Translations under genes and position numbers: made by a program
Notes under the pieces: generated by a model
The model's input: the letters and a program-made list of their open reading frames with translations, nothing else
The model's database searches: none
Told to the model about the DNA's origin: nothing
Assembly: GCA_937872895.1 (NCBI GenBank)
Contig: CALMUP010000005.1
Span: 1 to 64,000 of the forward strand
DNA length: 64,000 bases
Direction: 5' to 3'
Source of the DNA: an uncultured Verrucomicrobiota bacterium
Lineage (GTDB): Bacteria > Verrucomicrobiota > Kiritimatiellia > CAIVKH01
Part shown: positions 18,381 through 25,922 of the stretch, piece after piece
Layout of the letters: every line of letters starts with the position of its first letter
Position numbering within the stretch: the first letter of the stretch is position 1

Positions 18381-18428
18381 TCGATACAAAAAACCGGCCG
18401 GCTTTCCAAGGTCTGGAAAACCGGCCGG
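18381..18428 (-). terminator. Duplicated copy of the groEL intrinsic terminator
   Basis: On the minus strand: CCGGCCGGtTTTCCAgaccTTGGAAAgCCGGCCGG followed by TTTTTTT. Confidence 0.7.
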
Positions 18429-18550
18429 TGAATCAGAACGCGTTCGCGTCAGATCTTAGTACATGTCGCCCATGCCGCCGCCCGGTGGCATGGCGGGAGC
18501 TTCCTTCTTCTCGGGAATCTCGGTGATCATGCACTCGGTGGTCAGGAGCA
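18391..18550. repeat. 160-bp direct repeat, left copy (attL-like); terminator plus 3' end of groEL
   Basis: 100% identical by eye to 25763-25922. Confidence 0.9.
18456..18550 (-). pseudogene. Displaced groEL 3' fragment (last ~31 codons, ...[13 protein letters not shown])
   Basis: Identical to the real groEL 3' end at 25828-25922; lacks the rest of the gene. Confidence 0.85.
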
Positions 18551-18579
18551 AGACGAAACTCGACCCAACAAATTGAGCA

Positions 18580-21500
18580 TCACATTTTGATCGTTTTTTG
18601 TAACCAGTCGCCCTGAAGGATTAACTTACCACCGGACAGAAGCAGATCTATTTGGCTGTCAATAAGCTCCCTAAGCGCAGGCCCAGTAACGCTGAAGCCG
18701 AGAAAACGAGCTACGGCACTGGGTAACTCCTCACGGCGAGCACCATGCCCTGCATCTACAAACACCATAATTGCCTCCTGCACTTCAGGTGGTGGCAGGT
18801 ACTCGGGCTTCCTCAGTGTCGAGGAAGAAGTGCTCACCCGACTTCTGGGCTTAACCGGTGCACCCGGGATACTGAGGAACCCATTACTACGAACGCATCG
18901 CTTTTGGGTTAACAGTGTATGCACGGAATTTCCTACGGCGCTTTGAATTCGCGCTCCAGCCCGACTCAGACCCCACAATCCGCGAATGCGCACGACAACC
19001 TCATCTTCATGAATGGGTCCTTCAATGCTCACAATCCGGTGAACGATATCTCCGAGCTCTCGGGGGGACAGAAGATGGATTTCTTTTTTCGGCACCGCGA
19101 ACTTGGCTTCCTCATAGATAACTGCCGTCAATTCGGATGATCGTTCGTCTTTCGAAATGGCCAACACCTCACGCGAAATACCTGCGTCATCGCTAGCCGA
19201 TACTCTGACCGATACGATGGGCGCAGCGGCTACCTCTTCGCTTTGTGCAATATTTTTAGCTTTTTGAATTGCTGACTGGATTTTCCGGAGCTCATCAGTT
19301 CTACGCTGGAACCAATCCGTGCTCCATACCCGATGAATGATCCATCCATGATTCTCCAGGACCGCTTGCCGAAGCCGATCGCGCTCTCTCGCTGAACGCG
19401 ATGAATGGTATGATGCCCCATCGCATTCGATCCCCAGTATGTATCGGCCATGCAACTCCTGATCAACGACGGCAAGATCGATAAAAAATCCGGCAATACC
19501 GACCTGACTATGAACCTCGTAACCCAACGACTCTACAGCGCGGCGAATGGACTCTTCGAGGGGCGATTGCTCCAGCTTGCCCGAAGGTGCCGCCAACGAC
19601 ATACGACCCGTTCTTGCGAAGGAAAGAAACGCCTTTAATGCTGCCACACCCCGACCAGGTGCGCGCTCAAGATCAATTTGATCCTCGGTTATGCTTGAAA
19701 AGACTTCACATCGCGTTTTGGCGCGCGAGATCAGGACGTTTAAACGTCTTTCCCCACCCTCGGCATTGAGCGCGCCAAACGTCATTGCCATGTACCCGTT
19801 TTCATCAGGGCCATATCCTACCGACAAAAAAATAACATCCCGCTCATCACCCTGAACGTTTTCCAGATTCTTGACAAAAAACGGTTCAGACTCGTGACCA
19901 TAGAAGAAACCTTCGAGGTCTGGGTGCTCGCGACGCAAGAGTTCCAGTTCATCCAGGATGGCCTGACGCTGTTTGATGGAGAATGCGGCAACGCCTAAGC
20001 TCAATTGCGGCGTTTTTCGCGCATGCTCAATTACCGCCTTGGCAACGACCCTCGCCTCAACGCGATTAACGGCAGCACGACCACGCTCAAAGACTCCATC
20101 AGGAACATGGTTGAATTTTAGCCCAAGACCAGCAGCTGCGGAATGTGGACTGGGGACAATAAACAGGCGGTCCTCATAGAATTCATGGTTCGATACGGCA
20201 ATCAGCGTATGATGCCGACTTCGGTAATGCCAGCGAAGCATTTTGGAGGGGATCCCGCGCGCGAGGCAAAGACCGAGAATACTCTCCATGTCGCCAGCTT
20301 GTACAATATCCTGAGGGACCTCCTCGTCCTCTTCTTCAGATCCGTTCGTCATTCGCTGGAAAAACCGGGTTGGCGGAAGCTGTTTGCTATCACCCACGAC
20401 AACAATCTGTTTGCTTCTCGCAACTGCGCCCAGCGCATCAACGGGTTGAACCTGACTCGCCTCGTCAATAACCAGTAAGTCAAACTCGACAGCACCCGCC
20501 TCAAGAAATTGCGCGACGGATAGAGGACTCATCATAAACACGGGTTTAATGGCCTGAATGACTGAACCGCAGTCTTTCAGCAAACGCCTAACCGGGCGAT
20601 GCCCGCGCTGACGCTCCATTTCACCGCGAAGGATTCCCGAGGGCCCCACCCCAACGAACGCTGGCATCTTGCTGAAATGAGCATGCAAGACCCGGTACTT
20701 GGCAAGCGTCAGTCGCGCTTTATCCATTTCCTTGAAGTCGTTTACATGTGTGTTGTGCAAGGCGCCATCAAACCGCGCAATGTTCGGCTTATCCTTGACG
20801 ATTCGCCGAAAGATTTCGGCATAATAGGCATGGTCGAAAACCGCACCGGCAACTTTTGGCGTAAGCCGGCCGGAGTCGAGCTCCGTAACGATGGGTGAAA
20901 GCCCGTTTTCAAGCGCGTCTCGGCGTAGCAAGTAGTATGAATTCCATTCAGAAAGCGAATCAAGCCTGATGAGCCACGTAGCGCCACGATCGCGCAACAT
21001 ACTCAGGGGCACATCTTCCTGCTGAATAACATTAAACGACTCCTGCCAATCAAGCCTTAACTCGGCCTCCACAACCGATCGAGCCGCGCAAAATGCTGCA
21101 GCCTTGGCGCGTACAGAGTCAACTGTGGATCGCAACGCTTCAGGACGCTCCTGGACTACCGCAAACACCTCGCGGAAATCAGCGTCCAGTCCGACCGCCT
21201 GCTGTTCATCCACCCACTGAATGATTGCATGAAGCTTTTCACAATCCGAGTCCGCTCCCTGCCAGTTCGACCCGAACACGGCACGTCCATATTCCTCGTT
21301 CGCGGTGATTTCCTTGAGGATGCGCTGCCCCTCGATGATTTGATCAACTCGCCCGAGAAGATTCCTGGGCAGCTTTGTGGATGGATTTTTCAGCGCACCA
21401 CGCAAGGTGGCCACCGAACGTCGATAACTCCCATTCAGGAATCGGAAAAATGAAGTGCCGTGAGATGCAACCGGACCCCGAACATCAGAGAAGTCTTTTT

Positions 21501-24265: not shown

Positions 24266-24897
24266 GATGGAGCACTAGGTTTTTGAGCGGGATCAAGATG
24301 AGTAACCTCCGCCTTGTTCCAAAATTCTTCAAACCGGGCCTCCAAGTCTCGTCCCATTTGGGGCTCATTGAAAAAAACCTCGGCTTTGATCGTGTCCGCC
24401 GGGCTATCCGGTGCCAATTCACCGTGCAGCTTCTCTAGACGGACTATTTTGGAGTCGCACACAATGAAATGTTGCAGCTTTTCCTTTGCCTTTAGCCGTG
24501 CAAGGGTGAACGTGCCTGCGAATTCATGCGCAAGTGCCACTAACCATTCAGGATAATCCGGCGCAATTACAATCATGCGGGCTGTACCGCTTGCTTTTTG
24601 TACGCGTTGCAATGCATCCGTCAGATGCCTCAACAAAGCAGCGTAAAAGCCACCGCAACCGCATCCAGTAACAATATTTATGCTTTTGTGCGTGTGAAAA
24701 AGCATCGTCTCTGTGTATTCCAGAGCGTCAGGATAACAATCGTTTTCCAACTTAATGGTCTCACCCTTCTCGAGGACAGCACCGACAATATCTTTCAAGC
24801 AGTGAGACGGATTGGCAGCTTTCGCCTTATAATTTGAAATCGCCTGCGCGATTGTCATGCTTCCCGCTTCATTTCTTTGTTGCTGGCTCATCATCAA
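24142..24897 (-). CDS. Hypothetical protein (island cargo, 251 aa)
   Basis: Coherent ORF in the low-GC island; Gly/Cys-rich segment IVTGCGCGGFYAALL; no recognisable domain. Confidence 0.5.
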   Translation of the reverse strand: MMMSQQQRNEAGSMTIAQAISNYKAKAANPSHCLKDIVGAVLEKGETIKLENDCYPDALEYTETMLFHTHKSINIVTGCGCGGFYAALLRHLTDALQRVQKASGTARMIVIAPDYPEWLVALAHEFAGTFTLARLKAKEKLQHFIVCDSKIVRLEKLHGELAPDSPADTIKAEVFFNEPQMGRDLEARFEEFWNKAEVTHLDPAQKPSAPSWLIQQMDALRHQPPPTSEQVDIQMSASIAIRKKLTDKAIV

Positions 24898-25751
24898 CCC
24901 TTTTCACTCAAAAAAGAGACGCGCTTGGTATCAAAAATGCTCAAAAAGGCAGTACAAAAACGACTATGCTTCAGCGCAAGAATGGGGTAAGCACAAAATC
25001 TCGTGTACAACCCTATGGAATGCATTCGTGTACCAGTAATTGGCCATGGTATTTCCCATCGATACACTTATAGACTAAACACATTTACATACTAATCGAG
25101 CATAGCGCAGAGTAAAGGGAAAATGGGCTACCATTGCTCAAAATTACTCTGACGAGTGGCTTGGATTCTTTACCTCGCTTCACAAAGTTGACAACAAAGC
25201 CCCAAAAAGTAATACATAATTCACACGTATTCAAATACTTGCAACAAGAATGCCCCCTCGACAACTCAAGGCTACCGCGTTGAGTATCCGCCTACTGGAG
25301 CAAGAGCACCCACGCAACATGATAGCCTAGTTCTGACAGTGTTTACTTCGCTGCGGCAAGTATGGGCAAATCCTTCACGTTCGCCTTGATGACCAGCCGC
25401 ATCAAGCAGGCGGCTAAAAGATTCTTCACCTTACCGGACGTCCACTATTGGGCCTTGACCGACGACATCGCGACGATCCTCTCTTGGCTTTCCCAATGGA
25501 AGCACCCGCCCCCGCCCAATCAAGAAAGAAGATCCATTCAACGCAAAATGGCATGGCGTTTCAATTACCCCGAAACGGGATTGTCTCACCTGTAACATTC
25601 TGACTTGCAATCAAATGCGACTTTCCGGCATTCGTTGTGACTGTATCGACATAAACACGCTCACCAAACAAACTTCAGGGTTCGCGCCCACTATGAATCC
25701 AAAGCTGGATCGTTGCATCTCTCGACTATTTCCAATAAACCATCTTCCAAG

Positions 25752-25800
25752 TCTTGTAAAACAAACCGGCCGGCTTTCCAAGGTCTGGAAAACCGGCCGG
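25752..25800 (-). terminator. groEL rho-independent terminator
   Basis: Minus strand: CCGGCCGGtTTTCCAgaccTTGGAAAgCCGGCCGG followed by TTTGTTTT; 28 nt after the groEL stop. Confidence 0.8.
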
Positions 25801-25922
25801 TGAATCAGAACGCGTTCGCGTCAGATCTTAGTACATGTCGCCCATGCCGCCGCCCGGTGGCATGGCGGGAGCTTCCTTCTTCTCGGGAATCTCGGTGATC
25901 ATGCACTCGGTGGTCAGGAGCA
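25763..25922. repeat. 160-bp direct repeat, right copy (attR-like); part of the intact groEL
   Basis: Identical to 18391-18550. Confidence 0.9.

Follow-up and report, generated by a model that had tools for sequence, protein, structure and literature searches.

The cryptic prophage e14, or phage 21, integrates in icd of Escherichia coli and supplies a replacement gene end. Cis-mobilisable elements (CIMEs), defined by their descent from ICEs or IMEs and by their rescue through a helper integrase, accrete in tandem at the 3′ end of fda in Streptococcus thermophilus. Staphylococcal islands of the PICI/SaPI type integrate at the 3′ end of groEL using their own integrase, and the att core of SeCISE48 consists of 18 bp of groEL (PMC8125051). 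In Pseudomonas aeruginosa, two core defence hot spots between conserved genes, cDHS1 and cDHS2, are described in the parts of PMC10250203 drawn on here.

In this work, we analyzed an AT-rich island that adjoins groEL in a 64-kb stretch of DNA from an uncultured bacterium of the Kiritimatiellia (the whole of this stretch is called the window). The initial annotation noted that the target is an essential chaperonin gene and not a tRNA or tmRNA gene; for the 3′ end of groEL, the staphylococcal PICIs, with their own integrase, provide a precedent (PMC8125051). Like e14/phage 21 and the PICIs, the island leaves its target gene intact via an incoming 3′ end, with a displaced duplicate marking the far border. 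However, integrase and excisionase genes are present in those elements, and their att core is short and fixed, whereas the groEL island contains no recombinase, features a 160-nt identity block, and has variable boundaries at related loci. With CIMEs it shares att-like repeats that surround cargo devoid of recombination genes, as well as the formation of tandem arrays at a housekeeping gene's 3′ end, but neither a helper nor a relationship to ICEs is demonstrable in the window and the contigs examined. As portrayed in those parts of PMC10250203, cDHS1 and cDHS2 likewise combine conserved flanks with anti-phage cargo that differs among strains, and they lack obvious mobile-element machinery; duplicated flank fragments, which bracket the groEL blocks, are not mentioned there. 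As judged from sequence comparison, the segment appears to be a small block of anti-phage cargo occupying a hot spot that varies among strains and is delimited by groEL on one side and a convergent pseudopilin-like gene on the other.

RESULTS

The island is foreign in composition and framed by two copies of the groEL 3′ end

The island (18551-25756) has a GC content of 0.51, compared with 0.644 for the rest of the window, and its noncoding stretch (24898-25756) has a GC content of 0.46. The GC3 values of the three island genes are 0.56, 0.43, and 0.48, while groEL reaches 0.91 and groES 0.89. Both measures thus lie well below the host values, in agreement with the initial view that the AT-rich segment is foreign in composition.

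Also proposed at that stage were two perfect 160-bp direct repeats carrying the groEL end and an intrinsic terminator, and string comparison confirmed them: 18391-18550 equals 25763-25922 over exactly 160 nt, with different adjacent bases on both sides, and a repeat search pairs 18385-18550 with 25757-25922 (166 nt, 99%). Each 160-nt repeat comprises 92 nt of groEL coding sequence (the last 31 codons), the stop codon, a 26-nt spacer, and the terminator, which in both cases has 17 pairs and a T-run (18429-18393 and 25801-25765). Direct repeats hence bracket the island and one of them overlaps the 3′ end of the target gene, a configuration expected of integrase-mediated islands and prophages at gene 3′ ends. 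The location at the end of groEL is supported as well. Thanks to the contiguous copy, gene and terminator remain complete; the second copy has become a dead fragment, displaced from groEL, and its terminator probably serves the helicase gene. At the 18550/18551 junction, a short imperfect similarity (TCGTC-TTG versus TCGTCGCTG) to sequence upstream of the functional repeat was found. groEL itself is located downstream of dnaK and groES (Table 1).

The cargo comprises a candidate defence gene and a recurrent gene pair

Open reading frames and profile searches agree on the gene content initially described, i.e., a helicase-nuclease, two more ORFs, and noncoding DNA. The 1593-aa protein has the domain architecture of the PADLOC candidate defence gene PDC-S37 (PDLC05009) and matches this model over its full length (1812 bits; residues 16-1588 on profile positions 8-1545 of 1550). 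It stays below the NCBIfam equivalog cutoffs for ProA (1470.4 versus 1500 bits) and Hhe (1024.5 versus 2000 bits). With Hhe it has the helicase and Vsr-like nuclease region in common, and it differs from ProA in that the first ~358 profile positions are missing. This helicase-nuclease is related to Hhe and ProA and is encoded by a candidate anti-phage gene.

The 249-aa protein, for which 17 homologues were found, has no match in Pfam, PADLOC, or NCBIfam. Its AlphaFold2 model (pLDDT of 85.8) was compared with the PDB by Foldseek, which retrieved PLD-superfamily nucleases and TrmBL2 with E values of 1e-8 to 1e-6, and the fold predicted in this way is PLD-like (Nuc/NucT/PLD3/TrmB C-domain). Its kinase-like neighbor matches PF18762 with an E value of 4.5e-6 and 27.2 bits, the cutoff being 27. 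The pairing of PLD-fold and kinase-like genes recurs in L007, L013, L014, and L015, and DNA homology of the module to other loci extends over 24858-23619. In the adjacent AT-rich stretch of ~860 nt, six-frame fragments yielded nothing convincing and Rfam gave no match at an E value of ≤1.

Terminator relics, a hairpin, and vapBC mark the edges

The terminator occurs a third time, in part (its 3′ half with the T-tail), at 17574-17610, a copy that was missing from the initial annotation; the junction between this relic and the vapB promoter is found in another species too (L185). Also newly observed is that ~23 nt adjoining the right repeat toward the island (25743-25762) resemble native post-half-terminator sequence (~75% identity, 17/23, by eye). 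A blastn comparison of 25743-25789 with 17563-17610 gave 89.6%, and the foreign AT-rich DNA starts beyond this tail. Between the half-terminator and the left repeat lies a vapBC toxin-antitoxin pair (17650..18310) that had likewise gone unmentioned. A small antitoxin gene of the RHH type overlaps the gene for a PIN-domain toxin, as is characteristic of type II VapBC systems, and the pair is preceded by a sigma-70-like promoter at 17619-17647. On the core side, the T2SSG-like gene has a bidirectional terminator at 17531-17557. The hairpin motif is unique in the window; L184 and the sister species L102 retain the hairpin at the island's distal edge.

A second arrangement in the same species indicates a long-standing resident

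The initial annotation predicted that related genomes would show groEL, its terminator, and the gene at 16959-17513 without interruption. In two conspecific contigs, L184 and L002, groEL and its terminator are indeed followed directly by the neighboring T2SSG-like gene, although the comparison contigs may be chimeric in part, with three different groEL 5′ parts joining one same 3′ part. The predicted junction thus exists, but L184 is no empty site: the same helicase gene, the same displaced groEL fragment, and vapBC are located just past a second copy of the T2SSG-like gene. Apart from a few SNPs, L002 agrees with L184's left part as far as it extends, but it stops short of the position of the helicase block. 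The L184 insert is bracketed by a ~0.65-kb duplication of the opposite flank, comprising half-terminator, tail, and T2SSG-like gene (7105-7736 versus 16533-17306), and its left-hand cargo is a TrpD-like gene instead of the gene pair of the window. The displaced groEL fragment shares 78.7% identity with L184's own groEL end, and its spacer is 30 nt longer, whereas the two copies of the window are identical in spacer and terminator.

Common to both arrangements is the junction formed by the helicase stop codon, 29 nt, and groEL codon ~512. The helicase gene diverges by 1.5% between them, much as the core flanks do, and this divergence is mosaic: identity is 90.8% in the first 300 nt, 99.3 to 100% in nt 300-2100, and 97 to 98% in later blocks, as would be expected from an exchange of the left cargo with a crossover inside the gene. 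Over 6641 positions, Logan contig L006 of the island departs from the window just once, at the synonymous site 25858 inside the repeat, where L002 and L184 also differ.

The sister species L102 holds an orthologous helicase gene (84% nucleotide and 89% amino acid identity; groEL, 83% at the nucleotide level) directly after the same tail. The hairpin follows here too, but it is not preceded by a displaced groEL fragment. At least three cargos therefore occur at the groEL locus beside the shared helicase gene: the 249-aa and kinase-like proteins in the window, the TrpD-like gene in L184/L002, and a 337-aa and a 212-aa gene in L102. Differing cargo between the same conserved flanks is what distinguishes a defence hot spot. 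The initial annotation had offered a recent insertion that has lost its recombinase as one of two possibilities. Given that the junction is shared, that the helicase gene has diverged much as the core flanks have, and that its orthologue occupies the same spot in the sister species, a recent insertion is not supported, and the island seems to be a long-standing resident rather than a fresh arrival.

Displaced gene ends occur at further loci. L185 contains a groEL fragment equal to 25850-25955 of the window, and in the Acidobacteriota MAG L069, three dead groEL ends, roughly 100, 260, and 130 nt long, succeed one another behind groEL. In L103, a 72%-identical PDC-S37 lies behind ilvD and is flanked by a decayed duplicate of the ilvD end (260 nt, 87% identical) that contains a frameshift.

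No recombinase accompanies the island or its analogues

In keeping with the initial annotation, Pfam, PADLOC, and NCBIfam searches of the island proteins revealed no recombinase inside the island, and none was found in the 64-kb window (Pfam gene tables plus 20 further ORFs). The inserts of L184, L102, L103, and L069, which are analogous, likewise yielded no integrase, transposase, or serine recombinase; this search covers the window and a few metagenomic contigs, and a recombinase could lie elsewhere in the genome. The same three databases detected none of the genes typical of PICIs or SaPIs in the island (integrase, regulator, primase-replicase, and packaging interference), and profile and structure searches assigned no replication or recombination function to the unit. 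Nor is there a fixed crossover core, since the displaced groEL fragments differ in their 5′ and 3′ limits across window/L184, L185, and L069. The repeat pattern had no match in the viral contigs searched. Flanking direct repeats were observed at only 2 of 59 unrelated PDC-S37 loci (a third match is the terminal overlap of a contig), so that the repeat pattern is not a property of the PDC-S37 gene.

Table 1. Features of the groEL-proximal island and its flanks, in window coordinates
Feature	Coordinates	Strand	Remarks
Convergent T2SS-G-like (pseudopilin-like) gene	16983..17513	+	Pfam T2SSG, weak; right-hand core flank
Relic: 3′ half of groEL terminator and native tail	17563..17610	-	All but 2 of ~48 positions match L002 and L184
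vapB-like RHH antitoxin gene (DUF6364/FitA-like)	17650..17898	+	Overlaps vapC by 8 nt; profile match
vapC, PIN-domain toxin gene	17891..18310	+	Pfam PIN, E 6e-9; host-like GC3 of 0.89
Hairpin of GTGAC/GTCAC repeats	18329..18380	.	Inverted repeat between displaced repeat and vapC; folded
Displaced copy of groEL 3′ end and terminator	18391..18550	-	Begins 29 nt past helicase stop; terminator 18429-18393
Helicase-nuclease gene, 1593 aa	18580..23361	-	DUF4011 / SF1 helicase / MTES_1575 (Vsr-like) nuclease / DUF3320 (Pfam)
PolyVal-type kinase-like protein gene, 218 aa	23609..24265	-	Second module gene; Pfam PF18762 Kinase-PolyVal
Gene for protein of predicted PLD-like fold, 249/251 aa	24142..24897	-	First gene of conserved two-gene module
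AT-rich stretch, GC 0.46	24898..25742	.	Unshared with the other contexts of the gene pair; homology starts only at ~24858
Tail, ~20 nt 3′ of terminator	25743..25762	-	Homologous to native post-terminator sequence: half-terminator copy, L002, L102, L184
Repeat copy contiguous with groEL (functional)	25763..25922	-	Last 31 codons, stop, 26-nt "W-type" spacer, terminator
groEL intrinsic terminator	25765..25801	-	17 pairs, 10 G-C, T-run
groEL	25828..27456	-	542 aa, intact; ORF and translation; Pfam Cpn60_TCP1 in gene table of identical contig
groES	27545..27832		Pfam Cpn10 in gene table of identical contig
dnaK	27917..29860		Pfam HSP70 in gene table of identical contig

DISCUSSION

The initial annotation interpreted the locus as the product of site-specific integration. 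However, nothing points to a site-specific recombinase, and the duplicated flank segments vary in length, in boundaries, and in the gene that is duplicated. We favor, with about an even chance of being right, a recombinase-independent duplicative insertion followed by cassette swapping through homologous recombination. General (RecA-type) homologous recombination on flank homology in incoming or sister DNA would have placed the block and later remodelled it. If a molecule that is circular, or has become so, and bears a copy of one flank recombined by a single crossover, the resulting insert would be bracketed by a duplication of that flank (Campbell-type), and double crossovers with groEL or the repeat and the 4.8-kb helicase gene as arms would swap the cargo beside groEL. 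The helicase gene would have been at the locus since before the split from the sister species, and the perfect 160-nt identity would reflect a recent crossover or gene conversion between the copies, not their first arrival. In favor of this model, one site-specific recombinase would not give both kinds of brackets, the groEL end and the T2SSG flank; the mosaic helicase gene, the single difference of L006 inside the repeat, the L102 locus with no displaced groEL fragment before its hairpin, the variable limits of displaced gene ends elsewhere, and the lack of a recombinase in the sequences searched speak for it as well.

Some observations fit recombinase-independent insertion less well. It leaves unexplained the source of a circular intermediate with exactly 160-190 nt of groEL. 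Moreover, since the copies in the window are identical in spacer and terminator and the displaced copy of L184 has a longer spacer, the model requires either one more conversion event or a resident allele of another type. Also counting against it are the rarity of flanking direct repeats among unrelated PDC-S37 loci, the chance that some comparison contigs are chimeric, and the chance that a recombinase is encoded elsewhere in the genome. Finally, an intact gene, a supplied 3′ end, and a sharply bounded displaced fragment form a classical integrase footprint, as left by e14 in icd and by staphylococcal PICIs at the groEL 3′ end. Site-specific integration, which we consider somewhat unlikely, would involve an attP mimicking the groEL 3′ end and a recombinase of the tyrosine or serine type, the gene for which would either lie elsewhere (on a helper element, as for CIMEs) or have been lost when the groEL-proximal module was replaced. 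In line with this, the displaced fragment begins at one sharp position in both the window and L184, and in L184 it is continued by a long spacer, a terminator, a tail, and a hairpin of the native type, as found in L102, suggesting that the original event inserted at about codon 512 and supplied a new gene end. The variable region beside groEL, the usual place of an integrase gene, has also demonstrably been exchanged. Nevertheless, none of the variants or analogous loci examined yielded a recombinase, the duplicated segments are unlike in boundary, length, and gene duplicated, and the repeat pattern was not found in the viral contigs searched.

Alternatively, a tandem segmental duplication from groEL codon ~512 rightwards, arising by illegitimate or microhomology joining or by break-induced replication with template switching, may have trapped a foreign block at the join, with deletions and swaps to follow. 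Such a duplication could account for the fact that practically the entire groEL-end-to-T2SSG segment is present on either side of the L184 insert and for the only short imperfect similarity at the 18550/18551 junction. We deem it quite improbable: the same data fit the Campbell-type model equally, and duplication alone leaves unexplained why the sister species has a helicase gene at the same site without any duplication.

One could also suspect an assembly artefact, in which a circular episome of 7.37 kb (island plus one repeat) sharing 160 nt with the chromosome was threaded in by short-read assemblers, given that a perfect repeat of 160 nt is probably longer than their k-mers, that the graph alone cannot tell integration from a chromosome plus a circle, that NODE_204 and NODE_511 of the same assembly are identical over ~18.6 kb yet unlike upstream, and that the two ends of L130, a PDC-S37 contig of 8.99 kb, overlap by 90 nt. 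This is hardly credible, as several contigs of 50 kb to ~385 kb bear the arrangement of the window, the unit encodes no replication or recombination function detectable in our searches, and L184 permits only one path from the helicase gene via the displaced groEL fragment and the hairpin to vapBC, the chromosomal pairing being fixed by the difference between the displaced fragment and L184's own groEL end (78.7% identity).

Returning to recombinase-independent insertion, a broader and, in our estimation, unlikely extension is that a recombinase-free cassette system operates behind conserved housekeeping genes, in which each arriving block of accessory genes, bearing the 3′ end of the upstream core gene, would integrate via this homology, restore the gene, and push the old end downstream. 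If true, this system would leave arrays of dead 3′ ends, as with groEL in Kiritimatiellia, groEL in L069, and ilvD in L103, and it would be a functional analogue of integron cassette arrays in which general recombination, acting on gene ends of high conservation, provides the driving force.

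An exact repeat of the groEL 3' end brackets AT-rich DNA

A repeat search paired 18385-18550 with 25757-25922 (166 nt, 99% alike), and direct string comparison showed that 18391-18550 and 25763-25922 are identical over exactly 160 nt, with differing bases adjoining them on either side, which confirmed the exact direct repeat at the groEL end described in the initial annotation. Read in the direction of groEL, each copy comprises the final 92 nt of coding sequence, the stop codon, a spacer of 26 nt, and a hairpin of 17 pairs in 37 nt, followed by a T-run. GC content between the copies is 51%, versus 64.4% in the rest of the window, and the three island genes have GC3 values of 0.56, 0.43, and 0.48, versus 0.91 for groEL and 0.89 for groES. 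The foreign, AT-rich composition claimed for the island thus held up, both measures being clearly distinct from those of the host. The anatomy likewise supports an insertion at the 3' end of groEL that supplied a replacement end.

Just inside the right repeat, ~23 nt at 25743-25762, which overlap the T-tail, are ~75% alike (17/23, counted by eye) to the native DNA behind a partial third terminator copy (the half-terminator) on the far side of the island, so that the foreign AT-rich DNA begins ~20 nt past the groEL terminator. Among six-frame fragments of the AT-rich stretch of ~860 nt beside groEL, we found no convincing ORF remnant or remnant integrase; the stretch had no Rfam match, and a search at E ≤ 1 gave two chance-level matches elsewhere.

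At the opposite edge, vapB and vapC have host-like GC3 values (0.82 and 0.89). We had considered vapBC as a recent second island and withdrew this, given that composition and a junction between half-terminator and vapB that is common to another species. The GTGAC/GTCAC-repeat hairpin next to vapBC occurs once in the window and is kept at the distal island edge in two species; might it be a protein-binding or recombination site?

Features of the groEL locus and their coordinates (window positions unless a contig is named)
Feature	Coordinates	Strand	Description
Half-terminator	17574-17610		Partial third terminator copy (3' half and T-tail)
vapB, vapC	17650..18310		vapB-like RHH gene and PIN-domain vapC, between half-terminator and left repeat
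GTGAC/GTCAC-repeat hairpin	18329-18380; L102:8010-8065; L184:~15000-15050		
Helicase-nuclease gene	18580..23361	-	1593 aa; DUF4011, SF1 helicase core (AAA_11/AAA_12), MTES_1575/DUF559 Vsr-like nuclease, DUF3320
PLD-like/kinase-like two-gene module	23609-24897	-	Also in L007, L009, L010, and L013-L015
groEL	25828..27456	-	542-aa ORF; dnaK and groES upstream

That no integrase or recombinase lies inside the island was borne out by domain searches, which found no recombinase or transposase domain in any island protein. The Pfam gene tables of ENA ERZ794913 NODE_204, a contig identical to the window in reverse-complement orientation, list no recombinase domain across window positions ~7900-37800, and Pfam scans found none in 20 of the larger remaining ORFs of the 64-kb window. 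The sole tRNA gene is 20 kb from the island.

Two arrangements within the species

All comparison sequences are metagenomic contigs. Exact-protein look-ups found the window arrangement on several contigs of 50-385 kb, and the Logan contig L006 differs from the window at 1 of 6,641 positions, a synonymous site within the repeat (25858, CCC for CCA). That the sole difference falls at a polymorphic site of the repeat points to recombination or conversion within it.

A second arrangement is seen in L002, a bioreactor metagenome contig 98.75% identical to the window over 8.2 kb, where groEL, a different 26-nt spacer, the terminator, the native tail, and the neighboring gene follow one another without a break. 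Although we initially took L002 for a clean empty site, we withdrew this reading because L002 continues like the conspecific contig L184 (ENA ERZ761607 NODE_95, 194 kb), tracking its left part closely to the last base of L002, with a few SNPs. Past the same uninterrupted junction, L184 carries a second, partly diverged copy of the convergent pseudopilin-like gene, AT-rich DNA, a low-GC TrpD-like gene, and then the same helicase gene (98.5% substitution identity). Next comes the same displaced groEL fragment as in the window, joined at the same nucleotide, followed by tail, hairpin, two small genes, and vapBC; the distal end consists of half-terminator, tail, the complete pseudopilin-like gene, and DUF1501. 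The whole insert of L184 lies between two copies of a ~650-nt stretch of the other flank (7105-7736 versus 16533-17306). The empty-site comparison was therefore borne out for the uninterrupted order of groEL, terminator, and neighbor in L002 and L184, but not for a naive site, as L184 holds the helicase block further on.

In the displaced fragment of L184, the spacer is longer and resembles the one in the sister species L102, and the terminator is of the L002 type. This fragment is only 78.7% alike to the groEL end of L184 itself, so the junction between helicase gene and fragment cannot be an assembly ambiguity; L184 thus establishes that the helicase gene is paired with the displaced fragment and vapBC on the chromosome.

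Within groEL, three 5' parts (window/L002, L184, and L003), mutually diverged by ~25%, are joined to one 3' part, with switch points at nt ~1200 of the gene in L184 (groEL at 5444-7072) and nt ~800 in L003 (groEL at 17938-19566; window groEL, 25828-27456). L099, a contig of low coverage assembled from the sample that gave L184, ends where L184 switches. These switches could be either real recombinants within groEL or chimeric contig joins, and only sequence downstream of them was used as evidence. L003, which is identical to the window to ~26500 and then has another groEL type, is a chimera or recombinant and was left out of the evidence.

Further variation was observed nearby. The TrpD-like gene of L184 (8171-9361; GC 0.46), an anthranilate phosphoribosyltransferase by NCBIfam TIGR01245 (318 bits), lies directly upstream of the helicase gene, where the window has the PLD-like/kinase-like pair. 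About 6 kb upstream of groEL (window ~33963 and upstream; L002:1-3231, L099), strains vary at a second point, with photolyase, UbiA, and HPr genes in the window and RND efflux and OEP genes in L002 and L099. The bidirectional terminator of the pseudopilin-like gene (window 17531-17557) is split in L184 (~16600-16715) by an insertion of ~112 nt and in L185 (~135-790), a contig of a further species, by one of ~610 nt. Both insertions are bounded by the inverted repeats TAGAGGAAGAGGAGG...CCTCCTCTTCCTCTA, the L185 copy holds a 107-nt groEL fragment, and they may represent a MITE-like element that targets hairpin loops.

Helicase gene and repeat in other species

In L102, groEL (82.7% nucleotide identity) is followed by spacer, terminator, and tail, then by two other genes and the orthologous helicase gene (83.9% nucleotide and 89% amino acid identity). 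The same hairpin stands ~60 nt past the helicase gene, followed by a homologue of the small gene of L184, and the stretch separating helicase gene and hairpin lacks the displaced groEL fragment. In L185 and L187, from a further species, VapC is 86% identical and the unit of tail, half-terminator, vapB, and vapC is kept, with vapC bordering unrelated genes; a groEL fragment with other limits (window 25850-25955) lies within the insertion, bounded by terminal inverted repeats, that splits the neighboring bidirectional terminator.

The divergence of the helicase gene between the two conspecific arrangements is 1.5%, compared with 1.4-1.6% for the core flanks, and its divergence from the sister species is about that of groEL. 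Judged by these rates, the gene appears to be a long-standing resident of the groEL locus, and its junction with groEL codon ~512 is older than the split of the two arrangements. The proposed recent arrival is thus not supported. The gene is a mosaic, with 90.8% identity over the first 300 nt, 99.3-100% over the next 1.8 kb, and 97-98% in later blocks, a pattern that fits a crossover within the helicase gene by which the cargo next to groEL was swapped. Given the age of the gene, its shared junction, its mosaicism, and the L006 difference within the repeat, a recent crossover or conversion between the two copies is a better reading of the perfect 160 nt than a recent first insertion that left them as its scar.

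Predicted defense cargo

The 1593-aa helicase-nuclease matches the PADLOC candidate defense gene PDC-S37 end to end (1812 bits) and Hhe over its helicase-nuclease part. It scores 1470 against NCBIfam ProA, just under the equivalog cutoff of 1500 and with the first ~358 profile positions absent, and falls under the cutoff of NCBIfam Hhe.

Of the two ORFs described as unknown, both are present, but they form a conserved module of a PLD-fold and a PolyVal-type kinase-like protein. As a PolyVal-type kinase, the 218-aa protein is borderline. Only 17 homologues of the 249-aa protein were detectable, and it has no family assignment; its AlphaFold2 model (pLDDT 85.8) resembles the PLD-superfamily nucleases Nuc, NucT, PLD3, and Zucchini, and also the C-terminal domain of TrmB/TrmBL2. 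A role as a replication or recombination protein was rejected, given the PLD-like fold and its occurrence with the kinase-like gene as cargo of unrelated islands. The pair adjoins a ubiquitin-like (Bil-type) system and AbiE in L009 and L010 and an IS1595 transposase in L007. On the JGI contigs L013 and L014, circularly permuted and ~11 kb long (terminal overlap in L013, 1859 nt), it is accompanied by a tyrosine integrase, Prim-Pol, and an MmeI-type restriction-modification enzyme; these contigs probably represent a small integrative or plasmid-like defense element. DNA homology to the other contexts is confined to window 24858-23619, which marks the pair as cargo and places the 860-nt AT-rich stretch outside it. 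Its recurrence in neighborhoods rich in defense genes (Bil-type, AbiE, MmeI) makes the module a candidate for an uncharacterized defense system. PADLOC matched nothing other than PDC-S37 in the cargo of L069 (an Acidobacteriota MAG), L184, and L102, and we therefore do not call their cassettes defense genes.

Similar structures at other loci

At L103:9406-15104, a lone, 72%-identical PDC-S37 gene lies between ilvD and carB, flanked by the last ~250 nt of ilvD (to the stop codon) and an 87%-identical frameshifted copy of them; no recombinase was found at this locus. At L069:11400-21000 (JBDTWZ010000032.1), three cargo blocks stand behind groEL, and each is closed by a decayed groEL 3' fragment reaching to the stop codon (~100, 260, and 130 nt, near 16.0, 18.5, and 20.9 kb). 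A DUF4238 and an OST-HTH protein are among the ORFs, and no recombinase was found in those tested.

Such repeats were rejected as a general property of the PDC-S37 gene, as flanking direct repeats turned up at only 2 of 59 testable JGI loci (L132, 115 nt; L156, 54 nt); a third match, in L130, is the 90-nt terminal overlap of the contig rather than a flanking repeat. L130 (JGI Ga0194047_10003337, 8990 nt) encodes a PDC-S37 homologue, a Sel1/TPR protein, and a zeta-toxin-like protein, has no replication or integration gene, and represents a small circle or, alternatively, an island that was broken at the repeats flanking it. As a background for such structures, across 2.39 Mb of fetched loci, long repeats 1-15 kb apart were direct in 18 cases and inverted in none. 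Among the matches listed in a GroEL-based GTDB scan, the best relative is only 80% identical, so that the species itself is not among them, and displaced groEL ends occur at 1 of 80 loci (L069), with tandem groEL paralogues at 4. Exact patterns for the terminator half and a degenerate groEL-end peptide had no matches in viral contigs or JGI metagenomes.

Discussion

To account for the anatomy of the locus, either the incoming DNA must have brought a groEL end of its own and recombined through this copy, or a flank duplication must have formed around the insert. We lean, at about even confidence, toward general homologous recombination, in which Campbell-type single crossovers would create the duplications and double crossovers would exchange the cargo. 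Five patterns in the compared contigs favor it over a single dedicated site-specific enzyme: the brackets derive from either flank, fragment boundaries vary, homologous cargo sits at different target genes, the 4.8-kb helicase gene is a mosaic, and recombinases are absent in every variant. This scheme leaves the source of the first circular intermediate unexplained, and we infer the order of events.

An integrase acting in trans, or lost along with the swapped groEL-proximal module, is a serious if somewhat unlikely rival, since e14 in icd and PICIs at groEL (PMC8125051) leave exactly this footprint, seen here without an integrase. The site-specific recombinase originally proposed is not supported, given brackets from either flank, variable boundaries, and its absence from the variants; nor is groEL a novel target, as PICIs use it (PMC8125051). 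A duplication that captured foreign DNA at its junction, which the anatomy would also accommodate, seems improbable to us, and an episome threaded in by the assembler, set beside the chromosomal pairing in L184, very improbable.

With this locus, an uncultured Kiritimatiellia lineage adds a fresh example of a defense hot spot or 3'-end island, unusual in the absence of an integrase and in its very clean repeat; apart from that repeat the locus is, taken as a single case, an ordinary defense hot spot. It illustrates that predicted anti-phage genes can settle right behind an essential, highly expressed gene, leaving it undamaged, and can be reshuffled among strains without mobile-element machinery of their own. 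Should the duplicated gene ends prove to be traces of insertion driven by homology, a dead 3' end of a core gene could be a simple genomic marker of islands that lack an integrase; such a marker would be of use mainly in annotating defense islands and in understanding hot spots that are "not obviously mobile elements."
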